Source: Ginglymostoma cirratum
Lineage: Eukaryota
DNA: 64,000 bases
Assembly (NCBI GenBank): GCA_024137785.1
Contig: JAHRHZ010000085.1
Span: 2,170,279 to 2,234,278, forward strand
Direction: 5' to 3'
The stretch's first letter is position 1; every line of letters starts with the position of its first letter. The notes beneath the pieces were generated by a model. That model worked only from the letters and a program-made list of their open reading frames with translations. It was not told where the DNA came from and did no database searches. Made by a program: the position numbers and the translations under genes. Of the stretch, positions 1-64,000 are shown in pieces.

Positions 1-350
1 CACAAGATCTACCAAACGCTGTTGAATGTTATGATGAATAGGGAATTTCACCTTGACTAGATCGCATCCTGAATACGTGAAGATATTCAATGGTCTTTGG
101 AAGAAGTAACAAGACAGGGATAATCAACGAACGGCAAGACACTAGGAAACTTAGAGGAACGGGAAGGTCTTGGACTTCTGTACACGGATCCCTGAAGGTG
201 GCAGGGAGGTTCAACAGGTGGTTAAGAAGGCATACAGGGCATGTGATTCTATCAGGAATAATATAGATCTACAACCAACGACGCTACGTTACAGGACTTT
301 GGTTAGGCCACAGCTGGAGCACTGTGTGCATTTCTGGTCGCCACATTATA

Positions 351-2966
351 GTAAGGTGCAGTGTTGAGTTTAAAGTTATCGCCAAAACAGATCATTACAG
401 TTAACCGTTAAGGGTTAATTGGACGTGATAATGTGCAATTGAAGACAAGTGGCAAATCACAAGGACACGGCCAAACAGCTTGTTTTGGCTAGGAGGGAAA
501 TAACATTGAGCATTTAAATACAGCCACCTTGGAAGCGTTTTTCATTTTTTTTTGTCAGAAGTCACAGGACACTAGGTTATAGTTCAACAGGTTTTTTTTT
601 GAAATCATAGTTCAGTGTGTTAGGTTGGCTAGAGCTGGGGAAAGGGATTAGGAGCAGAATCCCAAGGGATTACTCTGTGCCATGAAGGGGAAGTAGGTTT
701 CCCAAAGCAAACCAAGGACTTCACTCGCATGGGGTGGATCCTGCTGAGCGGCCTCCCGTATGCTGCCTCGGGACGTGCGAGATTTAAACGGCGAACGGGA
801 CATTGACGCTGCGCTGAAGGAGGCGGCTTAGACTGGTCAGGAAAGAGCAGATAAAGCTGAAGAGAAGCAGACCAGTACAGCCTGCAAATTGGCCACAGTC
901 CTGCACAAAAAGTGGGCGAGCCGGATAAAAGAAATGAGAAGGAAGTCCAGCTAAAGTGCACTTTTTATTCACTTCAGCTGATCGGGTCTCCGATCACTGG
1001 GACTGACTTTTTTTCCGATTTGGAGTACGAGGGGACTGATGGGGAAGGAGTCCCTAACGGTGATAATGTGCCCGTTAGCGCGCCCTTTAGTAACTACTAC
1101 AGAAGGGGCACGGCCAGCAGGCCCTACAGCATGCTCGCATTGTGCGAGATTACCCACTGACAGAATTGCAGGATTTGGGAAAATAATACTCTCTCAGAAA
1201 GCAGGGCACTGGGAGCTTGGATAACTCGGCTATGGGGCTCCATGGCGTATTATGTTTCTCTCAATCACGTGGAGCTACCGAATATGGGAGGGTTGTTTAC
1301 AGTTGAATGCCACACATAGGCCCCCTTAGGGCCCTTGGACAAGGAACATTAGCTGCATGGACACGTGTGACAGTGAGAACTAAGTAGCTGGACACCATGG
1401 AATGGGAGCAGGAAGCTGTCCCGTGGTGTACAATATCACAGGGAAGTGCTTGATTGAGAGAGATAGTAGGAACTGCAGATGCTGGAGAAACTGAGATAAC
1501 AAGGTGTAGAGCTGGATGAGCACAGCAGGCCAAGCATCATCAGAAGAGCCGGAAGGCTGACGTTTCGGGCCTAGACCCTTCTTCATAGATGGGAGAGGGG
1601 AAGGGGTTTCTGAAATCAAATGCCTGATTGGGAGAACTAGCTGCTCAAACAGGACTGTACACTAACAATTTCCAGGGACTGGACCAATAAGCTTTCACAA
1701 CCCGAATGAGAATCCAGCTCATGCACAATGGACGAACGCATCTCAGAGGGATGCTGTTGGCAATGTTGGGGCCAGCTCAGGGCAGACCAGTCGGTGAAGT
1801 TGTAATGTTGTTTGGACAGTTAGTGGATGCGGAAGTGCGCCAAGCTCATGCAGGAGAGCGGTAACAAGGGAGACCCAGGAAAGAACCGGAAGCGAATGAA
1901 AAAAAATAGCAAAATGAGATGCTTGCTGCTTTATGGGAAACAGGCACAGAAAGGGCTGAAATAGACAGAAAATGAATGCATGGTATCACCACCAGTGTTA
2001 CATATGCCATGTGCAAGAAGATTTATAAATCTGGTAAGGAATCAAAGGGGACATCGACCCCTCCCGTGGTGTGAGACACCAATTCTGATTTAGATGCTTC
2101 TTCCCAGAGTAAAAACGGAGAATACACCAAAGTTCCTTCTGTACCCTGCATGAGAGGAACTGGAGGAGATGTGGAGAGAGTAATCCCGTAGACTGGGAAG
2201 GTGGCCGGGACACTGAGATGTGACCAGTAGGGGGAGCCGACTCAGGGGCCCAGAGGTAACACATACCCGTCACAATTCGTTGGAGAAATGGAAATAAACA
2301 GCAAGTTATGGTCTCGGTCGATACGTTCCAGACATGTGGGAACTAAAACAACACTAAATAGACTTGAGAGAGCAGAAACACCTGCGGTGCGGGCACCGGT
2401 GCGATTGACAGTTCGAAATAGGCCACCGCGGATGGTATCTGTGTTAATACGGACAGCAAATGTAAATGTTGTAGGGATGTATGTTGTGAGAGGAAGGGAA
2501 CTAGGAAAGTTTTTTTTTGGTATAAGAAGGGTGATTATGGTCATTGGGAAAGCCAAATGGAAACCCTAATACATTCCTTTCCCTTCATGAATTGTTAATG
2601 ATAAACAAGTATTGAGGGCACAAGGAGATCGCAGACACTATTGAAGGGTCAGTGACAGCAAGGGTTGTATGACCCACTGTCTTCCTGTATTAACAGTCTT
2701 GTGTGGTCAGTCAAGAAACCAGATGGTAATGATAGTCGATGACTGACAGTTAAACCAACACAGACCACTATTTTAACATATACCTGAGTTCTTTTAACCG
2801 AACCATTTAACTTTAATATATATCCGTAATTTAGAATGTCAACTATTAATTCGTATACATATGAAGTATTAACGAAATAAATAAGTTATATAACGAGAGC
2901 ACAAGCCTTCTTGTAATCATTTCAATCGCACCTTGAAATAATCCATTACAAACTTTAGGCCTAACA
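351..2966 (+). mobile_element. Duplicated, internally deleted copy of the intronic ERV (part LTR, gag, start of RT, end of 3' LTR)
   Basis: Collinear with 51110-51350 and 52055-54110, then jumps near 2770-2800 to sequence matching ~58700-58872. Confidence 0.82.
1447..1635 (-). mobile_element. Penelope-derived short insert in the duplicated gag
   Basis: Imperfect TSD tgcttgattgagaga / tgcctgattgggaga; absent at the paralogous site near 52920. Confidence 0.75.
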
Positions 2967-3139
2967 ATCAGGAAAGATTTGATTACACTGGGAACGGTGC
3001 AGAAGAGATTCACCAGGATGTTGTCTCGTTTAAAAAAAAATGAAGAATTGCGGATGCTGTAAATTAGGAACAAAAACAAAGTTGTTGGAAAAGCTCAGCA
3101 GGTCTGGCAGCATCTGTGAAGAAAAAAAGAAGCAGATCT

Positions 3140-3169
3140 AACGTTTCGGGTCCGTTGACCCTTCCTCAG
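3140..3169 (-). ncRNA. Minimal type I hammerhead ribozyme core
   Basis: Minus strand reads CUGAGGA-A-GGGUC-AACG-GACCC-GAAAC-GUU, within a Penelope-type short insert. Confidence 0.6.
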
Positions 3170-4167: not shown

Positions 4168-5852
4168 CTTCTTTCGCATTTTCCGGAAATGAACTCGAAA
4201 CATGATATATTTGACACATATAGGCGAATTTCGGATATATTTGGCATGCCCAAAGAGCTACTACTTAATAAAGTCCCTTGCCTTTTGCCTGTTTTACATT
4301 TCTAAATCCACTGAAGATTTGTGTACCATTTCTGTGCCAAGTCAGGTTAAAGTCTTCCGGATAAAAGCTAAATGTCCTGCACTGCAGCTTCAGAAAAGCA
4401 GATGAAGGGTCTTCGGAACGTATCGGTACAATGTTTAGGGGAGCTGGTGAAGCTGAATTGTAGAAAAAAAAACAATATTTAAATAAATGTGGACATTGGA
4501 CTTCTACTCAAAAACTTAAACGATTTAATGAACTGATCAACTGTTACTTCTGGGTATGGCAACTGTATTGATGGTCAAACTGGGAGGGGTTGCTATTACT
4601 TTTATCATGTAGGGACCTCCTAATGCAATTGATATATCAACTGTATGTTCAGCAAAAGTACTACCTTGTGTCCATATTAATAAATACAAATATATTTGAT
4701 TTCTCATACTGTAAACTCCTCGCAATTAGCAGTTTGGCAACATGATCACAGGAAATGAGAGGGCCGCAGTCAAAACGGGGGAATAGGAATTTGGCTTTTA
4801 AAGTTGGAAACAAAACGACATTTGAAGTGCTTAATGTTGCTGAAAACATCTAGACAATTCATTGTGTTGCTCGATGCTCAAATTGTTACAAGTGCGTATC
4901 TTGGAAGTCTTGCATTAGCTTTCTATGCAACACAAATTTGAACGCCATTGGTTGGTACAGTGCAATTGTTGAACTGTGTAGTGTCGCTTGTGATGCTTTT
5001 CTTTTTTTACCACATTATTGAACATGTTCCGAAGAAATGAATGATTTTATATACAATGTATATATTTGTGAAAACGTAACTGCTAACTCGCATTCACTAT
5101 TCAATGAAACCAAGACTTAACGTTTAACTGTGATATCACCAACCGTAGACAACAAGTTGCGTGGCGTGTTTGTTAGCAACTGTTTGGATTTGATGTTTGG
5201 CGACGCAGTAATATGTTCCAGAGTCCAGAACAGTCACATTCAAGAGATAGATGAAGGTAGGCTCTACGATACAATATTTTGAAGAGTTTTCTGCTGTCTT
5301 CCTTCAGAAGCATGTCATTATCTTCTTGCCAACAGAAAATCTCAATGTTTGAAAGGTTGAGCTGGACGGTAAAAGGGCATCGCGCGAGAGCTGTTGGAGT
5401 TATTAGGGTCCTTATTAGCATAACGTTAGAAGTAACATTGTCCGAAGTACACACAACTGTTAACAAAATATACGTATATTGATTAAACAGAGAAGGTGGA
5501 TTGCACCGTGAAAGAGCATAATTAGTCCAATACCCTCACGCAGAAGCAATTTATCATGCCTTGTTCTTCAAATTCTGACCCACTATCTGAGTTTCTGCCT
5601 GAACTGAAATATCGCAAATACTTTCTCACTTATCCAGAAGATTCCTAGGACATGAAAACACTGACACGAAAGACATACTAATGCGTGTCCGATTATCTGT
5701 CAATTATCAGTCCAGTTATTCTTCCATCTTGAGAAAGAACATTTCAAACACTGCAAGAAGGAGCATGTACCTGGATAGGAACGACGCGCACAAAAAAATT
5801 TCCACAGTGATCCACTCACAAACATGGCGACAATGAAACTCTGGCGGATCAT
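4168..5852 (-). pseudogene. Receptor paralogue copy A (leader 5771-5852, V 5144-5456, C1 4168-4452), disabled
   Basis: The V exon is 313 nt (+1 frameshift before LNVTVLDSGTYYC). C1 frameshifts after GFRNV into a stop, has deletions, and its donor is mutated GT to GG. TM and tail would lie left of the window. Confidence 0.88.
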
Positions 5853-11600: not shown

Positions 11601-12010
11601 CTAGGAAAAGTATTGAAAGTGCTATGCAATGGTGATATAGCATGTCACAATAGATTCAAAATAGTATCAATATCAGGCACATTACTCCAGTCATTGGACT
11701 TTCACCATTGGGCTCGAATTCATGAAACCAGCAGTGTGGAATCTAAGATAGAGGTCCAAATGCTGGCATTGCCAAAGTTACTGATGAACTGAAAGGCAGT
11801 GTTGACAATCATGTGATGAATATATATCTGAGTAGTTTAACCTAATCTTTTAACATCAACACATATCTATGAAATAAACTGACAATTATTAATTCATATG
11901 TACATTAAGTATTTTAAGTTAATGAATTAGGTATATAATGAGTGGACAATTCTTCTTGTAATCATTTCGATCAGGCTTTAAAACAACCCATTAGGTACTT
12001 TCAGCTAACA
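11600..12010 (+). repeat. 3' part of the ERV LTR (copy B)
   Basis: Aligns with 58470-58872. Confidence 0.7.
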
Positions 12011-12791
12011 ATGCAAAAAGATTTGAATGCACGCAGGAGGGTGAACCACAGATTCACCGGGATGTTGTCTGGTTTAGAGCATGTCAGCTATGAAGGGAGT
12101 TTGGAGAAGCTCGGATTGTTCTCTTCCTGATTGAGCTGTATATGATTATGAAGGCATTGACAGGGTGGATTGAAAGCAACTGCTCCCCTCAGTTGAAGGG
12201 TGAACAACACGAAGTCATAATTTTTATACGAAAGGCAGAAGGTTCAGACTGAAACTGAGGGTTTATTTTTCACGGAGCATATTGGGTATCAGGAATGCAC
12301 TGCCTGGGAGGATAGTATAGCCGCGAAACCTTTAAGAAATTTAAATGGTCGAGCTTAAATGTCTTATCGTTCAATGGTATGGGCCAAGTGCTGGAAAATG
12401 CAATTAGTGTGGATAGGTGGGCAGCAATCAATGAGCCAAAAAGCCTCTTCTGTGCTGTAAAACGTGATGATTTTTCTCTCCATCTTTTATGACCGTCCTT
12501 AACATTTCCAGTTACTAAATTTAACACTGAACGTATATTCGATAGTGAATTGGAACATTATGTAAATTATGGACCTCTCAACGACGAATATCCACTGTTG
12601 TCTGAATCCCACATGACAATATACTACACACGTTTGGAATAAGCTGAAGAAAGGAAACGTTCAGGAACACAATAATGTCAAATTTCGGGATTGACAGAAT
12701 CAAAGACGATTGACTGTAATCAATTTCTGCTTCTTTATCCTTTTAAAACGATACCTGAAAGATTAACATGCAACGTGCAATAGAACCTTAC

Positions 12792-13064
12792 CTGCTTTCT
12801 TAACAGTTGGTGTTTGCTGGATATGAGCTCGAAACACGACATACTTGACACGCGTGTCACTTTCGGGTATATTTGGCACGTCAAAGGAGCTGCCCACTTC
12901 ATAAGGTCCCTCGCCTTTTGTCTGTTTTACATTTCTAAATCCAGTGAAGATCTGTGTAATGTTTCTGTGCCAAGTCAGATTAAAGTCTTCCGGATAAAAT
13001 CCAGATGTCCTGCACGAAGGGTCTTCAGAACTTATCGTCACAATTTTTAAGGGAACTGGTGTAG
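12792..13064 (-). pseudogene. Orphan C1 exon (copy B); no V or leader upstream
   Basis: CRTSGFYPEDFNLTW is present with intact AG/GT sites. A 21-nt deletion and compensating frameshifts remove the second Cys. Intron homology to the intact gene stops near 13300. Confidence 0.82.
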
Positions 13065-14269
13065 CTGCGTTGTAAATGACAACATTCAAATAATTGTGGA
13101 CATCGGACTTCTACTCCAAAACCTAAATGATTGATTGAACTAACCAGCTTTTACTTCTGGGTATGGCAGCTGCATTGATCTTCATTATAAATGCTGGTAG
13201 GGGTTGTTGTGACTTTTATCATGTAGCGACCTACTAATGCAGTTGAGACATCACATGAATGTTCAACAAAATTGAATACTACTTTGGGTCCATATTAATT
13301 AATACACGTGAGGGGACTAAGTTGGATGGGAACTGAATGGATGTTTTTTCTTATGTTGAAGACTTTAATTCGGCCAAGCAGTTTAAAAAATAAGAAGTCT
13401 CACTTTAAAGGCAGACATTTTTTCTCACCATCAGAGGATCTGTAGCCCTTGAAATTCTTTTTCACAAAAGAGTAGAGGTGGGCCAATTATATTTAATCAG
13501 GTGGCTTTAAATTTAGTTTTGATTTAGTTGGAGTCTCTGAGTTCCGTGGCTACCACAGAGGAAACTGGATTTAGGGACAATTGCTGGTATAAATGTTTAC
13601 TGAAAGTCATTACTTTTCGGCGGAGATGACTGAGCAGAGCCTTTGGCACAACATGGAAGAGCCTTCAATGCACTGCTGTAGACTGCTGAAGATAATTATG
13701 TGCATCAATAGACTGCAATTCTACACTACAGCGAGATGGCAGTGAAGAGTAGAGATATAGGATGTGCTATCTGCAGAGTACACATTGTCAGAAGAATTTC
13801 AAATCCAATATGACTGAAGAAGTCATATTAGATTCATGTGACTCTAGACCCACAGTAATGTGGTTGGCTCCTAATTGCCTTCTGGGTAATCAGAGATGGG
13901 CAATAAATGGTGAGCTAGCCAACTATGGCAACATTTCATGAATGATTTAAGAACAAACTATCCCACATGACAGAGAGTATCTGGGTTGTTCAATGTTGCA
14001 AAGTTGTGGATATGAGAACCAATTATGAGTGAATAAATGGCACAACGTGCATGAAATATCAAATGTGTGCAATGCATCGGAAGTGCTCAAGTAAATGTGT
14101 TTTCGTAAATCTCATTACTATTCATGGTATGTAGTCCTCACTTGACGAGCCAACATTTATTGTTCATCCTCGTCACCAATCAGAATTTGGTACTGAAGTA
14201 TTCTTGACCTGCTGCAGTTCATTTGGTTTGGTTTAGATAGACACATCAGTACCTTCATAAAATCATTGC

Positions 14270-15780: not shown

Positions 15781-18700
15781 TGATCCAAATCGTTAATAAT
15801 GTCAAGAGCTGAAGGGAATTGAACTGAGCATCATTGAGCAGGTTATTGGTGGACCAGTGCTAGCACTGTGGATGTCAGCCATCTTCCTGCAGACGAGTGC
15901 GACAATCCTGATAGGGCAGTAATTGGGTGTGTTGGAATTATCCTGTGACGCTTCCTCAGTGGAAAACAAAATCTCATCTCTGTCCAAAAGCGCAACCACT
16001 AATTTTTAAACACCATCCCATACATCTTGACTCATCCTCACTCAATGCAGGTACAAAACACAGAGAAAGGTGGAGAGAGAAACAGATTGAACGCTTTGAA
16101 TGTGGTATAACTTCTTCAGTCGTATTGGACTTGAAATGTTAACTCTGTTTTTCTATCCACAGAACTACCAAACCTGCTGAGTTTCTCTCACAATTTCTGT
16201 TTTCATTTTGTTTCAAATTTCCACATTGTTGGAATCCAGTGATGCAGCTGTGCTTGAACAGTTGGGCTAGGGATCCCACCATATTTGGAGCACACATCTT
16301 CAGTACTATTGATAGACTTCTGTCAAGGCCAATAACCTTTGCAGCATTTGGTTATGTCAGGTGGAGTGATTCAGATCAGCTGAAGACTGGTATTAATGAT
16401 GCTTTAGATATTTGGAGGAGGCTGATAAGCTCACCCACTCAGCACTTCCAGCTGAAGTTTGTTGCAAATGATTCAGCCTCACCGTTTTCGCTAAAGTCTT
16501 GGGCTCCCAGAGCATTAAGCGTGAGATTATTTTTGTAGCCTCCTACTTCAGTAAATTGTTTCATTGTTAAAAGCCTCTCACAAGTAAATGCGGCAGTCCT
16601 GAAAATTATACACCTGAAGTGGTCGCAGTGAAATTGACTAGCCGTGTTTATCAGTTGCTGGACATAACATCTGGCATGCAAGTGGTTGAAAAGCGTCACA
16701 AAAATGACTACAAACTTCACTTCGTGATGTCAGAGGAACATTGCTACACATTGTTGTCTATGCCTGACCTGAGTTTCTCCAAAGTAGACGTAACTGTAGT
16801 TATACAGTCGCCTTAAAGAATCATTCAATGCATAACTATGTTTGTTTAATTTTCTCATCTAAGATTTTGCTGAATCTCCAGATTTTTTCAAAACACTTCT
16901 TTTTGCTTTTTATTTAACCATGCAAGAATTGGCTTTTTGAATCATTCTAACTGCTCACAATTTATATGTTATCAATAGTGCTTGCAGTGTAATAGAAGAC
17001 CGCATTAAATTCCATATTTGTTTCCACTCTCATGTGTTTTGATGTCCAATTCTGTCTTCTATACATTGAATGTTGACTGTCATTTTGTCTCTTTATGTTA
17101 CACCTGAAGACGTATGACTTCATTTATATCTCTTATCTTCTCACAGTATCGAACTGTATTAATACCTTGACTGTTCAATTTATGGCAACTCAAAACAGGA
17201 ACCAATTTATTTCCAGATTATCCAATTTAGTATCAATAATGGGAACAGTTTCACACATCTACTCCAACCATACATCTCATAATGTTGAACATTCTACCAG
17301 ATCCACTCTTGAAAAAACCTCTACCCATGCAGAACAATCCCAACCTCTCCAAACTATCCGCATAACTGAGGTTTCTCGACCCCGCAACAAGTTTTCTAAC
17401 CCTTGTTTTCATACTGTCTGATGCGTTCATATCTTCTTCTCATGTGTTTTCCAGAAACGATAATCACTATCTGCCTGAAGTCTAATGCATTGTTTTGTAT
17501 TTGTTCACGTATTTATGCGCCGTGTGTGTTCAGCATAGATTCCTTGCTCTTGCACATTATTTCTCAATTAGGAAATACCTGGACAGTGCCTACAAGGAGC
17601 TATGGATGAAAGCCGTTGTCACTTTTTTTTAGCATCTGATTCTGTCACGCTAGCTCATAATAGAATGACGTCACGGAAATCAAGGGGATCAAGAATGCCA
17701 TATTGGCTTCAAATGTATGTATGATGGACAACTGTTTGATAAACATATTTTCATAATAAATTTTGCAACAGATTGTCAGCCATTAATTGCAGCCAATGGA
17801 ACAGTCAGAAATAACTTGGATTCATGAGACATTGATAAAAGGAAATAACTCCTTGAACGATTTTTGAAGCTTAATATAGGCTTATGGATGGGCAGTAGCT
17901 GAATAAAAAGCGAAAGCAAAGATATATATAATGCACACATTTGTTTGGTTCTTTTAACCATATTCTTGTTTGCTTAATTTACGCCACTTATAATGAATTT
18001 GTTCCTTTGTACTGGGTTTTCGACAATAGCTGGAACCCATTCAAATTTGACCAGAGTAACGCTTTCTAAAAAAAAAACTATTGTGCTCTGTTTTAGCTGC
18101 AAACAAAGTGTTTGTAATGATTTCATATTTATTCAAATAACACTGCAGAAAACGTGTCAAAGATATATCGAATGTCACCTCAAAACTATGTTTTTGTCAT
18201 TAGCCGAATAAACATGTCTACGCAAGTCCCGAGAAATGTAATACCTATTTGCACCTATTTCTTCTGTTTCGGAAATCTGGTCGTATGAGGAGCAGTTGAG
18301 AACTCTGGGTATGTACTTGATTGAGTGCAAAAAGGTAAGGGGCGATCTGATTGAAATTTACAGAATACCGAGAATGTCCTTGGAATCTACCAGTTCAAGT
18401 TTATCTTCGTCTATGAATCTTATCTTTTACACTGTTAATGATTATCACGCGTTAAATTTATTTTCTGAAGTCAAGAGTGAAGCGTACATATTATAATCAA
18501 CATTTGCATTGTTTGGCATTGCTATCAAGAAGTATAGCTTTAATAGACTAAAGTTTCTATTCTGATCTCCTTCTCGCCAGTGGACAAATGATCTAAATTT
18601 TCTTCATCTCAGAATCAACTTCTTTTCCGTGTAATGAAAAAAAGCAGAAGAACTCTACACGCATCCAGTTTTTTGCAAAACAAAATGCTTTTTACCATCA

Positions 18701-48800: not shown

Positions 48801-51800
48801 AAATACACTATGATTCACGTCGACACAAGGTGTAATAAGCTAACTGGATTCAGGATGTAACTGAACATGTTGAACTCCAGTACAATTATTTAGTTTGTGT
48901 TGAAGCTGTCAAAATATTACTTCATCAGCGAAATTCACCGGACTACCTTCAGATCTGAAAAGATAAGATTTAACAGACTAAAGCTACGACCCTGAACATG
49001 CAATGTTGGCTTTGAAGTGACACAAATGCGTGTAAGTAGTTTCACATCATATATTTATTTTAACTGGACAAGTCAGATTTCAGTACCCAATAATGTGAAT
49101 GCACTTCAGGTTGTTTAATCAACACATGTGTGGAAGTTGTTCCATTTCGTATGTATATTCCTGTTCGTACCTTTAGATATAATGAATAGAAAATGCTTCG
49201 CAACCATCACTGTGCATAATAGAATTGCAAGTGCTCCAGTGGCACATCCAGCGACAACAGCAACCCTGATTTTGGAGGCAAAATCTATGAGATGAACATA
49301 AAATTAAAATTAGAATTGGTTGTGAGAACCAGAAACTTATACATTTAAATATCATATGCTTCTTTTCTCATTACACTGCTTTGGTAATATTCTACTACTG
49401 TACATGAAATCTCACATGTTAACTTCTCCCCTCAGCTTTTCTTTATGCAGTTGGATACAAAGAGGGTAAATTATCGGAATTTGGAGAAATAAAAGCAGAT
49501 GAAACAATAAATATAATTAATATATCAAAATCCGGCAGTATTCAATTAATAAGTGTTCAGATCAGATGACTGTGGGACAAGTTTCCTTGAGATTCATTTT
49601 TGAGCACAAATTATTTTATACATTTTCAAAGAAAATCTTTCTCCATGTGCAAACTACCCAACTGTTGAGGGCAGACAATTGCATAGTCATCGTTCACTGG
49701 ACTAACAATAGAGAACTCCAAGTTCTTGGCTCGCGGATTTTAATGCCACCAGGGCAGATGGTGAAATTTGAACTCAATATAAACCTGTTTGTCAGAAAAT
49801 CACATGGTCTCCTTGTTATCGGAAAGATGTTGTTAGACTTGAAAGCATTCAGAAAAGGTTTGCAAGGATGTTTTCAGTTTTGGAGCATTTTAGCTACACA
49901 TAGAGGCTGAATAGGCTGGGGCTATTTTCTCTGGAACCTCAAAAGCTGAGGGGTGACCTTACAAATGTTTGTAAAATCATTCCAGCTATGGATAGAATGA
50001 ATAGTCAAGGTATTTTCCCCAGGGTGGGGCAGTCCTAAACTGGAGGACATAGGTTTAAGTTGAGAGGAGAAAGATTTAAAATGGACCTAAGGCGTAACTT
50101 TTTCACACAGAGGGTGGTGTGTGAATGGAATGAACTGCCAGAAATTGAGGTAGCATCTGGTACAATTACAACATTTAAAAGGCATCTGGATGGGTCTATG
50201 AATAGGAATGGTTTGGAGGGATATGTGCCAAATGCTGCCAAATGGGACTAGGTTAATTTAGGATATTTGGTCGGCAAGAACGAGTTGAAACTAAGTGTCT
50301 GTTTTTGCATAGTACATCTCTATGACTGACTGTATGATCAGGTCCTTTGGAAGTAATTTTGCCAACGTTATTTGTCATGCAAGTGACTCACTGCAAATTA
50401 GATGATTGTTAACCACCCCCTTGGCAATTACAGAAAGATAATAAATGTCCTCCCAGTAAACAATACCCTCAATGAAATCAAAAGATCTGCTAAACTCTGT
50501 TGAATGTTATGATAAATGGGTACACTCTTAGCTAAGATTACAAGGCATGGAGCTGGATGAACACAGCAGGCCAAGCAGCATCATAGGAGCAGGAAAGCTT
50601 GACATTTTGGGCCTAGACCCTTCATCAGAAATTATTTTTGATGGGGTCATCAGGATTTCTGATGAAGGGTCAGGCCCGAAACGTCAAGCTTTCCTGCTCC
50701 TATGATGCTGCTTGGCCTGCTGTGTTCATCCAGCTCCACACCTTGTTATCTCAGATTCTCCAGCATCTGCAGTACCTTTTATCTCTGATACACTCTTAGC
50801 TAAATCGTTTTCTGAACATATATGAAGATATTCAGGGGTCTTTGGAAGAAGTAACACAACAGGGATACTCAATGAATGGCGTGACACTCGGAAGCTCAGA
50901 TGAGTGGGAAAGGCTTGGACTTCTGTCCACAGATCCCTGAAGGTTGCAGGGCAGTTCACCATGGTGGTTAAGAAGACATACAAGGCATATGATCTTGTCA
51001 GTAATGGTGTAGATTTATAACAGCAAGGAGACTACTTTGGAGTTTAACAGGACTTTGGTTAGGCCACAGCTGGAGCACTGTGTGCAGTTCTGGTTGCCAC
51101 ACGGTTATAAGTGTTCGGCTTAAAACATCTCCAAGACAGACTATTAAGCCTTAAGGGTTAATTGGAAATGGCAATGTGCAATTGAAGACAAGTGGAACAT
51201 CACAAGGCTTTCAGCAAAACAGCTTGCCTTGCCTGGGAGGGAAAAAATATCGTGCAGTTAAAAAGGAGCTATGTTGGAAGTGTTTATCAATTTGTTTTTG
51301 TTAGAAGTCACAGGACACTAGGTTATAGTCCAACAGGTTTTTTTTTAGAATCACAAGCTTCCCAACCGCTGCTCATTCATCAGGAGAAGATGACCGGACG
51401 AAACAGCAGACCTCAGAAAGCTTGTGATTTCCAATGAACCTGTTCGACTATAGCCTGGTGTGTGTGACTTCTGACTTTGTCCACCTCACTCCAACACTGG
51501 CACCTCCATGTCATAATTTGTTTTTACGCAGTGGAATGCCTGGAAAACCGCTGTAAACGCGCCGAAATAGTAAAACAGCGTGTAACTTGAGACTTAGAAT
51601 AGTATTAATGTCGGGGACTTGGCACCATCCATTGAAAGTTCACCAACGGGCTCAAGACCGGCGCCGTGGAACTGGAGATCGAACTCCATGTACCTCCATC
51701 GCCAAAGTCCCCAGAGAGCAGAGAGGCAGTGTGAAACTCACATGTTAAAGATATATCTCAGTAGATTAACCTGACGATTTAACTTTCATATATTAAGTGA

Positions 51801-54800: not shown

Positions 54801-57800
54801 AAGGGACGCAAACCAATTTAGGGATTATTATGGTGGACCATCAATTCAGGTTCATTAAAATTTCACAGTTATCCCATCTTCAGTAGCATATCATCTGCAC
54901 CCCAGTGATCAAACCGAATATTGTTTTTACTGTCAGAGTGGAAATAACCAATGGAAATAAATTATCTTCCCATTGCCGCTCTGTAAACACACCATGAACA
55001 TTACAGAGGCGAGGCCGGAGAGATGTACTCACTATTCTAGATTGAGCAGAGGCGAGAATGCTTGTGTTAACTTCCATGGGTATTGAAGCTCTAAAAAATA
55101 AAATTGCTAAAGCTAGGCAACTAACCAAATATTAACCTATTCGTTGCGTGGACCAAATCATTAGCTCATCGAGATTAAGCAAATTGATTTTTGACTGAGA
55201 TAACAAGGTGTAGAGCTGGATGAACACAGCAGGCCAAGCAGCATCAGAGAAGCAGGAAAGCTGACGTTTCGGGCNNNNNNNNNNNNNNNNNNNNNNNNNN
55301 NNNNNNNNNNNNNNNNNNNNNNNNNNNNNNNNNNNNNNNNNNNNNNNNNNNNNNNNNNNNNNNNNNNNNNNNNNNNNNNNNNNNNNNNNNNNNNNNNNNN
55401 NNNNNNNNNNNNNNNNNNNNNNNNNNNNNNNNNNNNNNNNNNNNNNNNNNNNNNNNNNNNNNNNNNNNNNNNNNNNNNNNNNNNNNNNNNNNNNNNNNNN
55501 NNNNNNNNNNNNNNNNNNNNNNNNNNNNNNNNNNNNNNNNNNNNNNNNNNNNNNNNNNNNNNNNNNNNNNNNNNNNNNNNNNNNNNNNNNNNNNNNNNNN
55601 NNNNNNNNNNNNNNNNNNNNNNNNNNNNNNNNNNNNNNNNNNNNNNNNNNNNNNNNNNNNNNNNNNNNNNNNNNTCCTGCTCCTCCGATGCTGCTTGGCC
55701 TGCTGTGTTCATCCAGCTCGACACCTTGTTATCTCAGATTCTCCAGCATGTGCAGCTCTTACTATCTCTGGTTTTTGACTGACATGGTTTGCAAGTTTGC
55801 GGATAGCACCGTTTAGAAAATGTATCACACCGGGATAAATCCTAGTTCCAAAGCTAACTGAATAGATTGTCAGCTGCTCGAGCTGTGTAGTTACAGCACA
55901 AAGACATGAAGTGATCAATGTATTGCAATCTGTACATCTGTTGTCTTGGAAATAATTATTTCACCTCACTATTACTAACTTAATGCTTCTGCCTGTCTTG
56001 TTAAAGAGTAATTGCAATGCCACAGTACGCAATGCCGATTATTTAAAACTTAATACAGCAGCAAATATGGTGCCAGTTTATCAACCTATCTCATCAGTCA
56101 CGGGGTACGCTGCTGACATCAGTATTTTATGGCACATGGCTGTAAACAGCAATTAGACCCATTGGGAACAATAGGCCTGGTAGGCCCCTTATATTTCCCT
56201 ACCTTTGAAACATCATACAATCATTTATGAAATTGGTCTGAACCACATATTTGATTCTAGAAATCATTCTGTCCACCTTATTGATAAGAGAGAGGAACCA
56301 TCTGCCAACCTATTTCGGGACAAAACATATGTTATCTATGATGAAATTAGATATAATCACCACATAATCGAAGAATGGGAGCGATAACTGTGTATCGAGT
56401 ACAGTACCTCCAGTTGTTATATTTAAGAAATTGCAGGCTTCCCTGACCAAGCATCAGCAGGTTCGTTCTTACTTGGCAACAAAACACCATGGCTTCTTAC
56501 AGCAAGAAACTGCCATGACTTACAGCCCTGATCAATTGATTCACAAAGCAGATAATTTAGGAACCCTTTCTATGTACCATTGGTGGGTCATATTTAACGG
56601 ATGGTCACCAGAAGCTTCAGCAGTACTCTCACTGTTATGGGATCCAAACGTTTATATTATTTTTAACTGTTTCTCGTTTTTATGTATCTGTGTGATGGCC
56701 TGCAAACTATATCACATGTATCAAAAACTTGTAGCTATTGAGCAGCATGTACGCGCTTGTAAAAGGTTTTGAGAAACGATTTTGAAGACATCAATGGGTG
56801 TTGTGTCGTCCAGGCTTAAAAATGACATCTCCAAACCAGACCGTTCAGGGTTAATCATTTAAGATTAATTGCACATGAAAGTCAGCAACTGCAGACAAGT
56901 GGAAAATCACAGTTTCAGTGTGAAAAAGGCTTTCTTTGGCTGGGAGGGAACTGCATGAACTTGGGTGGGTGGAAAACAGAACAATGTACAGTTAAAATTG
57001 TCCTTGTTCAAAAAAGGGAATAGGGATAACCGCGGAAATTCAGACCAGTTAGTCTAACAGCAGTGGAGGACAAATTACAAGAAAGGGCTCGAAGAGATAG
57101 GATTTATGGTCACTTGGATAGGCACAGTTTGATTCGTGATAGTCCGCATGGATTTGTGAGGGGTAGAACATGCCTCACAAACTTTATTGAATTCGTTGAA
57201 GAGGTCCCCAAACACGTGGATGAAGGTAGCACAGTGGATGTGGTACACATGGATTTAAGTAAGGCGCTTGATAAGGTTCCCTATGGTAGGCTCATGCAGA
57301 AGACAAGGAGGCATGGGGTAGGGGAAATTGTGGCAGATTGGATTCAGAATTGGCTGACCCTTACAAGACAAATGGTGGTACTGGATGGAAAATATTCAAC
57401 ATGGTGCTCAGTTACGAGTGGTATACCACAAGGATCAGTTCTGGATCCTCTTCTGTTTGTGATTTTTGCAAATTATTTGGAAGAAGGATGGAACTGGTGG
57501 ATTAGTAAGTTCGCAGATGATATGAAGGTGTGTAGAGTTGTGGATAGTGCGGAGGGCTGTTCTAGGTTACAAAGGGACATTGATAGGATGCAGAGCTGGG
57601 CTGAGAAATGGCAGATGGAGTTTAACCCTGAAAAGTGTGAGGTGATTCATTTTGGAAGGACAAATTTGAAAGCAGAATACAAGGTTAACAGAAAGATTTT
57701 TGGTAGTGTGGAGGACCAGAGGGATCTTGGGGCTCATATCCACAGTTCCCTGAAAGCTGCCACCCAGGTGGATAGAATTGCTAAGAAGGCGTATGGTGTG

Positions 57801-60800
57801 TTACTTTTCATTAATAGAGGGATTGAGTACAAGAGCTGTGAAGTTATGCCCCAGCTATACAAAACCCTTGTTCGGCCACATCTGGAGTATTGTGTCCAGT
57901 TCTAGTTGCCTCATTACAAGAAAGGTGTGGAAGCATTGGAAAAGGTGCAAAGTAGATTTAACAGGATGTTGTCTGGAATGGAGGGAAGGTCTCAGGACGA
58001 AAGGTGAGAGCCCGAGAGCTCTTCTCTTCACAACGACGAAGGATGAGAGGTGACTTGATAGAGGTATGCAAAATGATCAGAGGTATAGAAAGAGTGGACA
58101 GCCAGAGAATATTTTCCTCGGTTGGACGTAGCTATTATGAGTGGGCATAGTTTTAAAGCGAGTGGAGGTAGATATAGGGGAGACGTCAGAGCTAGGTTCT
58201 TTCCTCAGAGAGTGGTCCGGGCGTGGAATGCCTTGCCGGAGAGTTTAGTCGAGTCGGCCTCATTAGGGGCATTTAAGTGGCTAGTAGATAGGCATATGGA
58301 TGATAGTACAAGTTTGGGGTAGAGGTTAGATAGACCTTAGGTTTAGAGTAAAATTTCGGCACAACATCGTAAGATGAAGTGCCTGAACTGTGTTGTACTG
58401 TTCCCTGTTCTAAAAAAGACACATCTGGAAGACTTTTTCAGCTTATTTTCTCCGCAGTGGAATACCAGGAAGAGTTGCTGTAAGTTTTATGAAATGGTGA
58501 TATAGCATGTGACAGTAGATTCGAAACAGTATTGATATCGGGGATTTTGCCCCATTCATTGGACTTCCACCGTTGGGTTGGTGTTCATGAGACGGGCACC
58601 GTGGAATCTCAAATAAAGTTCCAAGTGATGTCATCGCCAAAGTCCCCGCCGAGTCCGAAAGGCAGTATGAGAATCACTTCTTCATACGGATATATGCGGA
58701 GTTTAACCTAACCATTCAACTTTAACGTGTATCGAAAATTTAAAATGTCAACTACTAATTCATATGTGTATGAAGTATGAACGAAATAAATTAGCTCTAA
58801 AAATGAGTGCACCTGTATTGTAATTATTTTAGTCTAACGTAAAACAATTCGTTATAAACTTTCGACCTAACACAGAAAGATGTAATTCCACTGGGGAGGG
58901 TGCAGAGGGGATTCGCCGGGATGCTGCCTGGTTTGGAACATTTTAGCTGTGATGTTTCTGGAGAAGCATGGACTGTTTTCTTTGGGGCAGGGAAGGTTGA
59001 GGGGAGCCTACGATTGAGCTGTATACGATTATGAAGGCAGAGACAGGGTGGATGAACAACAACTGCCCACTTTAGTTTAAGGATGAATAACGTGAGGTCA
59101 TAATTTGCAGAGGGAAAGGTAAGTGGTTTACAGCTACATGGAGGATGTATTTTTCACAAAGAGGGTGTTAGGCATCAGTAACGCGCTGCCTGGGAGCCTA
59201 GTGCAGGTAACAAACCTTTCAGTAATGTACGTGGACTACGCCGTAACATTCAAGTCTCTGGGCCAAGTGCTGGAAAGTGTGATTCTTGTAAATATGAGGG
59301 CTGCACTCAAGGGACAAAAAGGCTTTTTCTGTGCTGTATATCCTGATGATATTCCTCTCACAAACGGTGAGGACTGCAGATGCTGGAATACAGAATAAAT
59401 GAATGTGGAGCTGGAAAAGCGCAGTAGGTCAGACAGCAGCGCGGGAGCAGGAATGCCATCACTTCGGCCCGAAACATTCACTTTCCTGCTCTTCGGCTGC
59501 TCTCTGACCTGCTGTGCATTTCCAGCTCCACATTTATTGACTAATTTTCCTCTCTATCTATTTGTCAGCCTTTAATGTATCCAAAAAAATAAATTTAATA
59601 CTGAATGTATCTTCGGAAATGAATTGTAACTTTGTGTATTTAATTAAAACTATGGGACCTTTCAACGACGAATATTCACTTTTGGCAGTATCTCACCTGG
59701 CAATATACTACACACATTTGGAATAAGCTAAAGAAAGGAAACCTTTGACCATACAATAGTGTCAAATTTCGGGATTGACACTATCACCGGGAAATGACTG
59801 TCGTAATAACGTTTTACTTCGTCAACCTTTTTAAACGATGCCTGAACGATTAACGTACAATGTGTCATAGAATCTTACCTTCTTTCGTAACAGTGTAGCT
59901 GGCATTTACTGGAAATGAGCTCGAAACGTGGTATACTTGACACACGTAGACTATGTCACTTTCGGGCATATTTGGCACGTCCAAGGAGCTGACCACTTCA
60001 TAAAGTCCCTCGCCTTTTATCTGTTTTACGTTTCTAAATCCAGTGAGGATTTGTGTACCGTTTCTGCGCCAAGTCAGGTTGAAGTCTTCCGGATAAAAGC
60101 CAGATGTCCTGCATTGCAGCTCGAAAGAAACAGACGAAGGGTCTTTTAAGGGTATCAACACAATGTTTAGGGGAGCTGGTGAAGCTGCATTGTAAATAAA
60201 ATTCACATAAATGTAGACATTGGACTTCTACTCCAAAACTGAAATGATTTACTGAACTAACCAACTGTTACTTCTGGGTATGGCGGCTGCATTGATCGTC
60301 ATTATTTATGCGAGTAGGGGTTGCTGTTACTTTTATCATGTAGCGACCTCCTAATGCAATTGATACATCAATTTATACTATCTTGTGTCTCTATTAATGA
60401 GTAAATATGTTCGAGTTTTCATACTGTACACTTCTCGCAATCAGCGGTTTGGGAACAGGATCGTTGAAAATGAGACGGCCGCAGTCCAAGCGAAGGGAAA
60501 GGGAAAATACGGAGTCCGTATTTTCAAATTTGAAAATAAAATGACATTTAAAGTGCTTAATAACCTCGAGACAATACATTCTGTTACTCCGTGCTTAAAT
60601 TGTAAAAGTGCTTCCTTGGAAATCTTGCATTAGCTTTCAATGTAACACAAATTTAAATACCGTTTGCTGACACAGTGCAATTTCTGAACTGTGTAGTGTC
60701 GCTGGTGATGCTTTTTTTTTAAACGGCATTATTGAACGTGTCATTCGGAAGAAGTGAACAATCTTATATTCACTGCATGCATTTAAGAACATGTAACTGC

Positions 60801-61548
60801 TAACTTGCATTTACTGTTCATTGGAACCAAGTTGACTGAACGTTTACTTTGGTAGCACTAACCGTATACTACAAGTTGCGTAGCTTGTTTCTCAGATATC
60901 CTTCCATGCTGATTTTCGAATCTACAGTAATATGTTCCCGCGTCCAGGACAGTCACATTGAAGAGTTTGAGGTCGGCTCTATGTTTCGTTACCGTGAAGA
61001 GTTTTCTGCTGTCTTCCTTCAGAAGCATCTCATTACCTTCTCTCCACCAGAAAACACTTATCTTTGAAGGGTTGGACTCGAAGGGGAAAAAGCACCGCAG
61101 GATAGCTGTTGTATTTATCAGGGTTTTTACTTGCATAATATCCGGAGTAACATCGTCCGAAGTGCAGACAGCAACTGTTAACAAAAGCCATATATACAAT
61201 GATTAAGCAGGGAAGATGAACTACAACATGAAATAAACTAATTAATCCGAGACAGTAGCTCTTTGTTTTCTCCGTCACTCTCTGAATTCCTGCCCTAACT
61301 GAACTACTGCAAATATTTTTTCACTTATTCAGAGGATTCTTAAAACAAGGAACTCAGACGTAAAAAGCATATGAAAAAAAGTGTCCGATTATCCATCAAG
61401 TATCAGTTCAATTATTCTTCCACATCAATCAAGGACATTTCAAACACTGCAGGGAGGAGCATGTACCTGGATACGAAATGCACAGAAAACATAAGTTCCA
61501 CAGCGATCCACTCACAAACATAGTGACAAAGAAACTCTGGCAGAACAT
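45678..61548 (-). CDS. Intact 6-exon Ig-superfamily receptor gene (leader-V-C1-TM-cyt-ITIM), SIRP-like inhibitory receptor, 330 aa
   Basis: Exons of 82+312+306+114+44+135 nt = 993 nt splice in frame with GT-AG junctions (phases 1,1,1,1,0). Protein: MFCQSFFVTMFVSGSLWNLCFLCISYPV...LRC..FWWR..DAGTYYC..ATQLVVY-ASP..LQCRTSGFYPEDFNLTW..YVCQVYH..-TM VAVVAGCATGALAILLCTVMVA-..LTYATL..PLYAAV..stop. Confidence 0.85.
46260..46930. mobile_element. Penelope-derived terminal-repeat fragment with inverted ends
   Basis: Begins with acaccaggttatagtcc..gaaatcacaagc and ends with its approximate reverse complement; interior resembles 8780-9330. Confidence 0.6.
48688..48731 (-). CDS. First cytoplasmic exon
   Basis: Acceptor attgccaccag|, donor GAG|GTAAAG, 44 nt, phase 1/0. 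Reads GSKEKARNPTQPKDE. A decayed homologue with matching flanks is at 20911-20962. Confidence 0.75.
49171..49284 (-). CDS. Transmembrane exon
   Basis: Acceptor tcatctcatag|, donor AAG|GTACGA, 114 nt, phase 1/1. Reads DFASKIRVAVVAGCATGALAILLCTVMVAKHFLFIISK. A homologue sits directly after the divergent C1 exon at 21919-22037. Confidence 0.85.
49830..50340 (+). mobile_element. CR1 3' end
   Basis: RRNFFTQRVVCEWN. Confidence 0.8.
50521..50803. mobile_element. Palindromic Penelope-derived mini-element with a 15-bp TSD
   Basis: TSD tacactcttagctaa at 50521-50535 and 50789-50803, with ~100-bp inverted arms. The site is empty in the paralogous sequence near position 50. Confidence 0.85.
50659..50685 (+). 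ncRNA. Minimal type I hammerhead ribozyme core
   Basis: CUGAUGA-AGGGUCAGGCCC-GAAAC-GUC. Confidence 0.62.
51103..51957 (+). repeat. 5' LTR (interrupted by a ~215-bp Penelope-derived insert at ~51300-51515)
   Basis: Collinear similarity to 56802-56997 plus 58413-58872 (e.g. gacaagtggaa, cgcagtggaat, catcgccaaagtcccc, ending in aaca). Confidence 0.75.
53083..53237 (-). mobile_element. Penelope-derived short insert in ERV gag with a 14-bp TSD
   Basis: TSD cggtgaagttgtca at 53083-53096 and 53224-53237; absent at the paralogous site near 1795. Confidence 0.82.
55188..55782. mobile_element. Palindromic Penelope-derived element in ERV env, spanning an assembly gap
   Basis: Inverted arms either side of the gap; TSD tttttgactga. 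Confidence 0.78.
55275..55674. other. Assembly gap (400 N)
   Basis: Run of n. Confidence 1.
56802..58872 (+). repeat. 3' LTR (interrupted by CR1 at ~56998-58412)
   Basis: Follows the env stop and a PPT-like tract; matches the 5' LTR. Confidence 0.75.
56998..58412 (+). mobile_element. CR1 LINE 3' fragment inserted in the 3' LTR
   Basis: 280-aa RT ORF (GIPQGSVL, FADD). Absent from the LTR copy at 23340-24293. Confidence 0.92.
59879..60184 (-). CDS. Ig C1-set domain exon
   Basis: Acceptor acaatgcag|, donor AAG|GTAAGA, 306 nt. C1 motifs LQCRTSGFYPEDFNLTW and YVCQVYH. Confidence 0.93.
60863..61174 (-). CDS. Ig V-set domain exon
   Basis: Acceptor ttgttaacag|, donor ACG|GTTAGT, 312 nt. B-strand Cys (LRC), C-strand Trp (FWWR), D-x-G-x-Y-x-C (DAGTYYC) and G strand ATQLVVY are all in one exon. 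Confidence 0.93.
61467..61548 (-). CDS. Leader/signal-peptide exon of the intact receptor
   Basis: ATG at 61548 gives MFCQSFFVTMFVSGSLWNLCFLCISYP, then a phase-1 donor CAG|GTACAT. The same frame, length and donor occur in the paralogue at 5771-5852. Confidence 0.75.
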
Positions 61549-61623
61549 ACATTGGATGTAAAAAGAGGACTGATGAAAGTTTGTTGGAACATAAGTTATG
61601 CATCGATTTTAATCACTTGCTTC

Positions 61624-61646
61624 TATATAAAGGCAAGAAGCACGTG
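61624..61646 (-). promoter_or_regulatory. Candidate TATA-like box plus E-box upstream of the intact gene
   Basis: TATATA at 61624-61629, about 80 nt upstream of the ATG, and CACGTG at 61641-61646. The TATA-containing ~20 nt is missing from the pseudogene copy near 5920. Confidence 0.3.
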
Positions 61647-61974
61647 ACTAATTCCTTGCCGAGTGCACAACATGCATGTGTTTTAATATAAGATCTTGTT
61701 GTGGTAACAGTGAGCGGAAATGATAACTCGGATAGACGTCTGCAGTTAAAGCAAAATCTAGACCCAGATGGTGAAACTACTGTCGGAGTCCGTATCCACT
61801 CACATGACCCACCAGGCTTGGGCGCAATATTGCCCGGACCAATACAAAACTCCATCCGATAATTTTTTACCCGTGTCCACATAACGATAATATTCTTTCT
61901 TTGAGAACATTTTTCTCAGAATTTCAGTTCAGCCACAGGATGCAACTAAGGCCTTTTCAAGGAAAACACATGTT

Positions 61975-62280
61975 TCGGTGTCACGGTGGCTCAGTGGTTG
62001 GCACTGCTGCCTCCCGGTGCCGGGGATCCGTTTTCGAGATGGTGATTGTCTGTGTGGAGTTTGCGTATTCTTCCCGTGTCTGAGTAGGTTTTTACCGTTT
62101 CCTCCCGCAGTCCAAAGGTGTGTAGGTTCGGTGGGTTGGTCATTGTCCACAGAGTCCAGGGACATGCAGGCGAAAGTGGGATACCCGCGGGAATGCGGGG
62201 TTGCGGTTTGGAGGTGTGACGGGGATAGGGTGGATGCTCTTCGGAGGGTCAATGCACAAGATCATAGGGATTCTATGATT
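61975..62280 (+). mobile_element. tRNA-derived SINE upstream of the intact gene
   Basis: Paralogous to 6245-6560. Confidence 0.8.
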
Positions 62281-64000
62281 CAAAGGCTTTTGTAATTTAA
62301 TTCTGCTTTGAAATATACCAGGCCTTATTAAATAATTAACGTAAATCGTGCATTTAGCTGAATGAGTATTTGCCCTGGCTTTTGGATCAATGACTTAATT
62401 GCACAAAAACGCAATGTTCTTATTTCCTGCGGTGGAAGTGCTTTCGGCTTGTGATTTCAAATAAACCTATTAGATTATAACCTGGTGTCATGCGACTTCT
62501 GATTTATTTCTTGCAGGGAGCGGATGGTCGAATTCGATGAAGTTGCTGTCACGCCGGCGAGTGAATGATGTGGATTTGCTGAATTTTGCTGATGTTTCGG
62601 GCAGCCGTGGCACAAAGTTTCCACTTTCCCTGGCGGAGACACCCACTGACATTCATGAAAACGCTGCACTGAATATTTTACTCAGGAATCCATCAAATCC
62701 ATGGACCGCACGTAAGGTTGCTGATCAGTGATTGCTTCAGTCTGCTCCTGCTCTTTAGTGACTAAGCGGACATAAATTGAGATGTGTTCGATTAAAATGT
62801 CAATTGCAATTAAATGATAGTGAATAACATATTGTTTATTCTCTGTTTTGGGGAATTCCTGACAATTAATCTCAGAGACAGTGTTTCTTTCGTGAAGCTT
62901 TAAGACAATGAATTTCTTGTCTGTCAGTTTCACTGCTTTATCCTGATGCCGTCCTTCTCAGTTCTGTGGGAGCTGTAGCCATTCAGGCAAGTAGAGAGAT
63001 TTCAGCAAACTCCTGAATTCTACCGTTTAGAGAGAAGTAATGCACTTCCAAGCAATGAAATGGATCAACTAACAGCGATCGCTTGCCCTGCCTGTGAAAC
63101 CCTCCTGTCCTCCGTCCCCAAATGCTCACTGGGTTTATCTGCGCCACGTTGCCGACAGAGGATTAAGAAGGCAGCCCGAGACAGCTTTCTCAGGGGCATT
63201 TAGGTGTGTCCAATAAATACTGGCCGAGCCAGCAACGTCCACATTCCGTGAAAGCATAACAATAAATGTTATCTTGTCAGTTTCATTTCAAAAGACAACC
63301 AGATATGATGTCGGGAAACAACATAAAGAACCTGGCAGAAAATAAAAAAACAATCACAGGCTATTAATGCCTTGGTTTGTTCATAACATTGTTAAATAAA
63401 ACTTTCTTCATTTTGAATTAGACATGAGAGTAGAACCTGTGAAGTTAATTGTCTGTAATGAGCTCCTGTTCTAATTTTGGGACCGGACATCAAAGTACTG
63501 CGGATACTGGCGATTTGAAACAAAAACAGACATTGCGGGAGAAACTCGGTGGCGAGAAAACAGAGTTAATGTTTCGAGTCCAGTGACCCTTTTTTCTGCG
63601 TTTGGCTGGGACAGGACGGAACTAACACTTATCCACATTGTCAGACAGGTTTTTGTCGGCAGCTGTACAGAAAAAAAAAAAATGGATAAACATGTGTGGG
63701 GTCCTGAAGCCGGGATCTTCAATAATTGAGCTGCTTTCATCAATTCCTAAATTCGAGAAATGCGGTTTTGAGCTGGTCCACTGGTATGTTTTGTGTGCAG
63801 AGCAAACAGCGCCAGCTATTGGGCTGTTTATCATTATGAAATATGAGCACACAAAGCTAAAACTGATCAAACCCGAGACTGTGAAATAAAAGTGTTTGGA
63901 ACTTATTAACAGAAGTATGAAACCTACAGTAGAGGGTAGTTGTATTTCGTGATGTGAGCTGAACTCGAGAATGTTTCCATTTGTTTGTCCGCTCGGCTGA

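Follow-up and report, generated by a model that had tools for sequence, protein, structure and literature searches.

In excerpts of three papers (PMC5701461, PMC5112662, PMC4042635), the Siglec-11/16, Siglec-5/14, and Xenopus CEACAM systems combine inhibitory with activating genes; bounded gene conversion matches the ligand-binding exons of the two, and pseudogenization is frequent. The SIRP family is placed at Tetrapoda in an excerpt of PMC13262535, whereas PRARP, NKp30, and UrIg are described as linked to the major histocompatibility complex (MHC) in an excerpt of PMC10751288, and UrIg as secreted, with three C domains, in one of PMC12227049. Here, we analyzed a 64,000-nucleotide stretch of the Ginglymostoma cirratum genome (G000:C85:2170279-2234278, hereafter the window; the genome searched spans 4.36 Gb), which contains one intact seven-exon receptor gene (gene E), one complete pseudogene, and three fragments lacking V, one belonging to another subfamily. 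Our analysis makes it quite probable that the window carries an intact, transcribed two-domain receptor with a likely inhibitory tail amid gene debris, and that the gene g2308, 70 kb away, is its likely activating partner, likely matched to it by gene conversion.

Non-avian PRARP has the layout VJ, C1, transmembrane (TM) segment, and ITIM (immunoreceptor tyrosine-based inhibitory motif), which appears to be the layout of the family described here as well, while NKp30 has an Arg-type TM segment and no C1 domain, and NITR carries an I domain in second position. SIRP is linked to NSFL1C and FKBP1A at human 20p13, the B7-H6 locus lies near RPS13 and NUCB2 (human 11p15), and human SLC38A8 is located at 16q23; human 16q and chromosome 20 are paralogous. 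Our literature search returned no description of the present family or pair, but it did not cover the likeliest papers, so that absence from print is not established. The searched supplement file of PMC3964593, one part of that publication, contained no entries for SIRP, NKp30, DAP12, or ITIM.

Gene E and the mosaic gene g2308

Gene E lies on the minus strand and consists of seven exons, all with AG/GT ends, which give 1077 nt and an open frame of 358 amino acids with the layout Ig-C1-TM-tail. The leader exon (61467..61521; 55 nt, ATG at 61521, GT donor) is followed by the N-terminal Ig exon (60863..61174), which encodes a short, apparently VJ-derived domain with the cysteine pair C46-C102 and without the J glycines, and by the C1-set exon (59879..60184; Pfam C1-set, E 1.6e-10). 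The TM exon (49171..49284) has a best hydrophobic 21-mer free of charged residues. The tail is encoded by cytoplasmic exon 1 (48688..48731), exon 2 (45951..46061), with the ITIM-like LMYADL and a second tyrosine in IYAE, and exon 3 to the stop (45678..45812), with the ITIM-like LTYATL and a fourth tyrosine in LYAAV, next to the 3' untranslated region; two of the four tyrosine motifs fit the strict ITIM pattern. An earlier sequence-only reading of the window had claimed one intact copy, which gene E bears out, and had given only C1 exons; the other exons, including the TM exon and three tail exons at 49284-45678, were located with relatives from Stegostoma. The closest named relatives of the window family come from Stegostoma, and the gene E protein is 69% identical to Stegostoma XP_048402855.2 over 349 columns.

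The first domain of gene E spans 56 residues from cysteine to cysteine, and its predicted model (predicted local distance difference test score [pLDDT] of 87.6) best matches I-set domains (Z 13.1), with shark VNAR at Z 11.9. Since 37 of 55 database relatives keep a J-type GxG motif, which is lost in all five clean genes of this locus, gene E among them, the domain is probably a shortened VJ domain.

The mosaic gene g2308 (C85:2297799-2310268, minus strand) is intact and encodes 321 amino acids. Scanning in 700-nt steps revealed 88-97% identity to E over 12 consecutive steps (8.4 kb), a stretch that starts about 2 kb upstream of the leader and extends some 4.5 kb into the C1-TM intron. Upstream of this E-like part, the identity to E is 74-77%; downstream, g2308 switches sharply to 86-94% identity with two other genes carrying an arginine in the TM exon (Arg genes), and matches E at only 71-82%, in short patches. 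In the window, the shared segment, likely a gene-conversion tract, covers 54907..63707 (minus strand; 87-98% inside, 71-81% outside). The ectodomains of E and g2308 are identical at 196/206 residues, and the TM exons at 26/38. Comparison of the two genes also revealed differences at 2/136 synonymous sites in V+C1 versus 108/1960 sites in three introns (5.5%; p 0.044), and the greater closeness of the exons suggests repeated conversion favoring exons.

The TM exon of g2308 has Arg where E has Gly. The second of its tail exons (c1-c3) is 109 nt long, placing the distal tyrosines out of frame; in addition, the two tyrosines of c3 carry mutations. When c2 is included, one ITIM-like motif is kept; when it is skipped, none remains, owing to these mutations. 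A second clean pair is formed by g2564 (ITIM) and g2939 (Arg), identical at 183/206 residues, and four of the five clean genes fall into these two pairs. Of the features by which paired receptors are recognized, these are seen here: clustered genes have near-identical ectodomains, with ITIMs and an uncharged TM segment on one side and a basic TM residue and a reduced tail on the other.

Both members of the pair are transcribed in one RNA study, in which contigs of run X2 match the tails of E and g2308 without differences. In run X1, a 674-nt contig corresponds exactly to 45309-45812 and diverges from the genome at the exon edge 45812, while another contig matches the gene E Ig exon exactly from its donor. 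The g2308 contigs of X2 and X4 (two of the study's four runs) join TM-c1, c1-c2, c2-c3, and c1-c3 at GT-AG ends. The loose contig end at the g2308 TM acceptor is the 3' end of a type-1 C1 exon, which is common to 3 of 42 C1 exons, namely those of E, g2308, and one V-less fragment. Of the differences that mark g2308, the V and C1 contigs of X2 show, among the matches listed, 8 of 10 in V and both in C1. Runs X1 and X3 gave no contigs on g2308 exons and the raw-read runs X20 and X21 almost no depth on exons, neither of which proves silence or absence.

Two further observations were made in these runs. The c2-skipping isoform of the g2308 tail (L010:3655-6496) has a depth of 26.9 versus 40.9 in X2 and 70.7 versus 114.9 in X4, and skipping of the last ITIM-like motif may tune the g2308 signal. 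The listed V/C1 contigs of X2 carry g2308 letters only, while the E tail (45309-45812) occurs there at a comparable depth; X2 may contain an E allele whose ectodomain was converted, and contigs drop variants.

Phylogenetic analysis of 32 TM regions placed 11 Arg/His exons in one clade within the type-2 lineage (support 94/96); the "R" label of the TM exon of pseudogene A, a frameshift artifact, was left out of this count. The Arg exon has a single origin and is paired with several unrelated ectodomains: a starred subclade of eight Arg/His exons includes all six that are attached to type-1 ectodomains, and these six ectodomains are scattered among inhibitory genes. A single clade for the six, a group defined by TM type, was rejected by the approximately unbiased (AU) test (p-AU 4.35e-41). 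The Arg codon is kept in 10 of the 11 exons of the clade and also in Stegostoma and Heterodontus proteins. This discordance, with one Arg TM clade and several ectodomain partners, is as expected if gene conversion acted on these sequences.

The family cluster and its decayed copies

Genome searches gave at least 95 matches for C1, 67 for V, and 51 for TM/tail, most of them on C85 at 1.76-3.78 Mb, with further groups at C85 9.6-9.9 Mb and on C84. The family cluster occupies about 2 Mb in mixed orientation and adjoins SLC38A8, whose exons lie about 0.13 Mb past the last family C1. Extension into the flanks, which the sequence-only reading had proposed for counting copies, revealed 42 C1 exons or stubs in the cluster core (21 plus, 21 minus; three C1 exons of distant subfamilies are left out) and 34 V exons, together with 30 TM exons in a wider stretch. 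Among the 22 leader-V-C1 genes modeled, five are open through the TM exon with canonical splice sites (E, g2308, g2564, g2883, and g2939) and two more are open with a faulty splice site; the remaining 12 V exons all contain stops or frameshifts. That reading had also proposed birth-and-death evolution of an immune-receptor family, in agreement with the 29/34 V-bearing copies that are broken or have a faulty splice site and with the presence of both ITIM-tailed and Arg-TM members. Pairwise ratios of nonsynonymous to synonymous substitution rates (dN/dS) range over 0.31-1.28 for V and 0.31-0.67 for C1 (21 pairs of seven genes, the near-identical C1 pair aside), and on these sequences the cluster appears as a birth-and-death cluster with a faster-evolving outer domain.

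All five C1 ends named earlier (4168, 12792, 22161, 25695, and 59879) are exact and lie on the minus strand; the statement that all copies are on that strand holds within the window but not for the cluster. The claim of four decayed copies of the receptor proved too high, as only pseudogene A is a whole gene. Its leader exon (5771..5825), frameshifted Ig exon (5144..5456; 313 nt), and C1 exon (4168..4452; one stop, three deletions, GG donor) are on the minus strand, and the exons for its TM segment and tail fall immediately left of the window (L003). Fragment B (11614..13306, minus) is a C1 exon without V (13064-12792) that carries three deletions, together with flanking intron, in a context of about 1.7 kb. 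Fragment D (25695..25750, minus) is a 56-nt 3' stub of a type-1 C1 exon, truncated by insertion of short and long interspersed nuclear elements (SINE/LINE), and fragment C (22161..22439, minus) is a decayed C1 exon of another subfamily, with a decayed TM exon behind it (21925..22037, minus, ends approximate). Fragments D and C share one 9-kb block (16500..25750, minus) found twice more in the cluster, at G000:C85:3090.2-3097.9 kb and 2571.8-2582.6 kb (75-81%). This anatomy rules out five whole-gene copies in the window. In a tree of 41 C1 exons, E is sister to a gene from beyond the window, C joins two distant copies, and the branches of A and B are long and unresolved; the five window copies are therefore not a fresh local array, and a local tandem array of sister copies is ruled out by this tree together with the mixed orientation. 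The birth-and-death reading was thus broadly right, with the copies overcounted.

The collinearity claimed between 1-6720 and 50480-62430 was recovered by self-comparison of the window as 57-6704 versus 50800-62421, at 73-87% identity apart from the LINE and SINE insertions that break it; three shorter blocks surround 12792, 22161, and 25695, and one 3.6-kb block reaches E = 0, far beyond chance. The sequence described earlier as long terminal repeat (LTR) pieces is an old unclassified dispersed repeat (608..2761, no strand assigned; counterpart 52056-54111), passed on within the C1-TM introns of numerous cluster genes, with 65-85% matches on other contigs and no Pfam family at E <= 0.1 in the four open reading frames (ORFs) tested. 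A decayed LINE with endonuclease and reverse transcriptase (RT) occupies 27370..29990 (plus), and other LINE pieces occur, e.g., at 56999-58304. The segments 36929-37176 and 39430-39677 are 248-bp inverted copies with 99.6% identity, 2.3 kb apart in repeat-rich DNA, and constitute a very recent local inverted duplication. Head-to-head SINE pairs form fold-back palindromes at 50532-50754, 59398-59538, and 3653-3819, and the same SINE dominates the RNA reads.

Several loci elsewhere were also noted. The very start of C84 (L099, L100, L139, L140) holds two type-2 genes that closely resemble the genes at C85 2.68-2.72 Mb and is possibly an unplaced part of the cluster. More VJ-C1 family clusters, with intact J motifs, are located at C84 6.7-7.5 Mb (L126-L136) and at C85 9.6-9.9 and 14.4 Mb (L116-L120). 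A conserved member at C85 1.90-1.92 Mb (L104-L105), with Arg at the TM start, a short tail, and about 77-80% identity to a Chiloscyllium protein, appears from its sequence to be an older activating type, apart from the core-cluster Arg clade. Three tandem LTB4R-like (LTB4-receptor-like) genes at C84 17.2 Mb (L121-L123) are not diagnostic.

A profile search returned 87 representatives at E <= 1e-30. The 10 upper-rank relatives that were named all come from chondrichthyans (chimaera, sharks, skate, and rays), and a lower-rank sample of 10 comprises two chondrichthyan, one coelacanth, five amphibian, and two turtle proteins. By a crude pattern count, the 55 chimaera, ray, and shark relatives divide into 17 with Arg and no ITIM tail, 17 with an ITIM tail and no Arg, three with both, and 18 with neither. 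The turtle proteins P0139 and P0098 are tandem-VJ receptors, one with an ITIM tail and one with an Arg TM segment, and P0139 is on the same chromosome record as SLC38A8. SLC38A8 and a family member or profile hit share one chromosome-length record in Heptranchias, Chiloscyllium punctatum, Scyliorhinus torazame, and the turtle Malaclemys; in Latimeria, the two are not on a shared chromosome-length record. Database labels for the family are inconsistent (SIRP-, tapasin-, B7-H6-, or light-chain-like), and in the database model P0002 the first approximately 108 residues correspond to repeat DNA (L041, L162, L179) and not to receptor exons, which is likely an annotation error.

In the flanks, the 300 longest of 505 ORFs were scanned, of which two match an amino-acid transporter and one matches RT; marker searches for cadherins, G protein-coupled receptors, homeodomains, and inward rectifiers placed nothing on C85. 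SEP-domain exons, one set of which we take to be NSFL1C, are located on C87 and C52, and 0/95 C1 matches fall on those contigs. RPS13 is on C62, where a separate locus with C1 exons lies 0.54 Mb away.

Weighing the explanations

Our best reading is that these genes represent a non-rearranging VJ-C1 paired-receptor family of cartilaginous fish, which would work in the manner of the SIRP or Siglec pairs. By analogy with known paired receptors, the phosphorylated tyrosines of gene E would recruit SHP-1/2-type phosphatases and damp the leukocyte upon binding of a self-ligand, while the Arg of g2308 would associate with the acidic residue in the membrane segment of an adaptor of the CD3-zeta/FcR-gamma type bearing an immunoreceptor tyrosine-based activation motif, and g2308 would trigger the cell when a pathogen mimics the self ligand. 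Judging from other pairs, such an arrangement would serve to counter pathogens that bind the inhibitory receptor. As for its history, one recombination in the C1-TM intron may have joined a type-1 ectodomain to a type-2 Arg module downstream of it, conversions may afterwards have re-matched Arg-gene copies to different inhibitory genes, and most copies would then have decayed. A zeta-type TM exon with aspartate is present in the genome, on C32. Modeling of the Arg TM exon in a complex with two zeta-type TM exons reached a score of 0.11, which gives no verdict, and the AlphaFold model of a full-length Stegostoma relative was unusable (pLDDT 45.6).

Several points weigh against the paired-receptor interpretation. 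The joint table is filled by SINE matches and does not show the splice joints of gene E, which leaves exon-edge contigs only, and the expression evidence comes from a single study whose library type is unrecorded. The major spliced form of g2308 retains one ITIM-like motif; in one membrane window that scores equally well, its arginine is close to the outer end, and a lysine farther on possibly falls inside and could also serve, so that the adaptor is uncertain. The tail of g2939 is likewise uncertain, with one exon running into N. The bootstrap of the Arg clade, 94, falls just below the starred mark, and the cluster counts derive from a core of 1.46 Mb, of which 0.95 Mb was read. Pathogen-driven positive selection lacks support, as dN/dS exceeds 1 in V for only 2/21 pairs, and the signaling and ligand of the pair are deduced.

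The scarcity of such V pairs would also fit plain birth-and-death by unequal crossing-over, in which the copies are tandem duplicates, the likeness of E and g2308 reflects recent duplication, and there is no functional pairing; most copies are indeed broken, and E, A, and g2308 are connected by extensive stretches of collinearity at 74-81%. However, a recent duplication or single crossover leaves high identity to one side, whereas here the identity falls to 71-81% on both sides of the ectodomain, the second clean pair shows the same pattern, and the orientation is mixed. The bounded E/g2308 mosaic calls for gene conversion, or a double crossover, together with an exchange of the TM/tail module, and we give the plain process little chance. 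Local tandem expansion through unequal crossing-over alone, as put forward in the sequence-only reading, is insufficient for window copies that are not one another's closest relatives and for a gene E whose nearest relative is that mosaic. That E and g2308 are two alleles or a misjoin, akin to the collapsed or misjoined haplotigs that the same reading had named as unlikely, could be suspected from the long N stretches in the cluster, one of which (400 N) lies in the C1-TM intron of gene E. Yet the introns of E and g2308 diverge by 5.5%, their TM and tail modules are wholly different, contigs independently link the type-1 C1 end to the Arg exon and match both tails without differences in X2, and collinearity with A and g2308 continues on both sides of the N stretch, making an assembly artifact scarcely credible.

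It is unlikely, on our assessment, that g2308 is a true paralog with a matched ectodomain that acts as a weak inhibitory or decoy receptor. The ITIM-like motif of its major form and an arginine perhaps at the membrane edge would suit that role, but the Arg codon persists through nearly the whole clade and in two other sharks' proteins (Stegostoma, Heterodontus), and it goes with the 109-nt exon that takes the distal tyrosines out of frame and with the two mutated c3 tyrosines. An expansion of B7-type ligands related to B7-H6 shares the V-C1 layout, and B7-H6 is among the top solved-structure matches (E 2.7e-14), with some database names reading "NCR3 ligand 1-like". The separate C1 locus near RPS13 on C62, the J-type GxG of most relatives, and an ITIM/Arg dichotomy typical of receptors speak against ligands, and we regard this explanation as very improbable.

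A wider proposal, which we advance tentatively and consider rather doubtful, treats the SLC38A8-linked VJ-C1 family as a paired-receptor system ancestral to jawed vertebrates, to which SIRP would be sister through the whole-genome duplications given the 16q/20 paralogy, with dozens of genes in all cartilaginous fish and tandem-VJ ITIM/Arg receptors in turtles, and lost in mammals. If so, shark NK or myeloid cells would have in this family the KIR/LILR-like receptors they were missing, and the germline VJ-C1 receptor with CD3-zeta signaling from which T-cell receptors arose would have a living model here.

A birth-and-death cluster by itself is ordinary; what stands out is that a chondrichthyan VJ-C1 family, apparently unnamed, has a transcribed inhibitory/Arg pair whose members match across a bounded, likely conversion-derived tract. 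Conversion-matched paired receptors, described in mammals and frogs in the excerpted literature, are read there as a sign of pathogens exploiting the inhibitory receptor. A transcribed shark pair with a mappable tract would carry this strategy to the most ancient surviving lineage that has adaptive immunity, and it offers two cloneable genes for a ligand and adaptor search.

Comparison with known systems

Similar to SIRP-alpha and SIRP-beta1, the family has a V-type plus C1-set ectodomain, a four-tyrosine inhibitory tail, and clustered activating relatives. The best solved-structure sequence match of the family is SIRP 2wng (E 2.6e-16), and SIRP also appears in the top Atlas feature hits and in NCBI automatic names; profile scores are similar for SIRP, B7-H6, UrIg2, and Ig chains. 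Unlike SIRP, which has two C1 domains, gene E and the named relatives have one, the N-terminal domain is short, and the cluster adjoins SLC38A8 and not NSFL1C. SIRP-beta1-type TM segments carry a DAP12-binding Lys, and the family here has Arg. We therefore did not file it as SIRP: domain number and locus disagree, while the four-tyrosine tail agrees. A Pfam search for CD47 found no match anywhere, controls included, and is uninformative.

The V-C1 ectodomain is shared with B7-H6 (NCR3LG1), which differs in being a ligand and in having a separate candidate locus; RPS13, with other C1 exons nearby, lies on C62, away from the cluster, and membership in B7-H6 was rejected. With the non-rearranging VJ(-C1) genes (PRARP, NKp30/NCR3, NITR, and UrIg), the family appears to share a germline-joined VJ exon, with GxG in the majority of relatives, and its Arg members share the Arg-type TM segment of NKp30, although the window gene itself, unlike the GxG-bearing VJ genes, is without this motif. 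NITR membership was rejected because the second domain here is C1-set and not I-type, and in contrast to the MHC-linked PRARP, NKp30, and UrIg, the present cluster has SLC38A8 beside it, a comparison of neighboring genes only. Like the Siglec and Xenopus CEACAM pairs, the family shows likely bounded conversion that matches ectodomains, together with many pseudogenes; unlike them, it does so with an unrelated C1-set ectodomain and in a cartilaginous-fish host.

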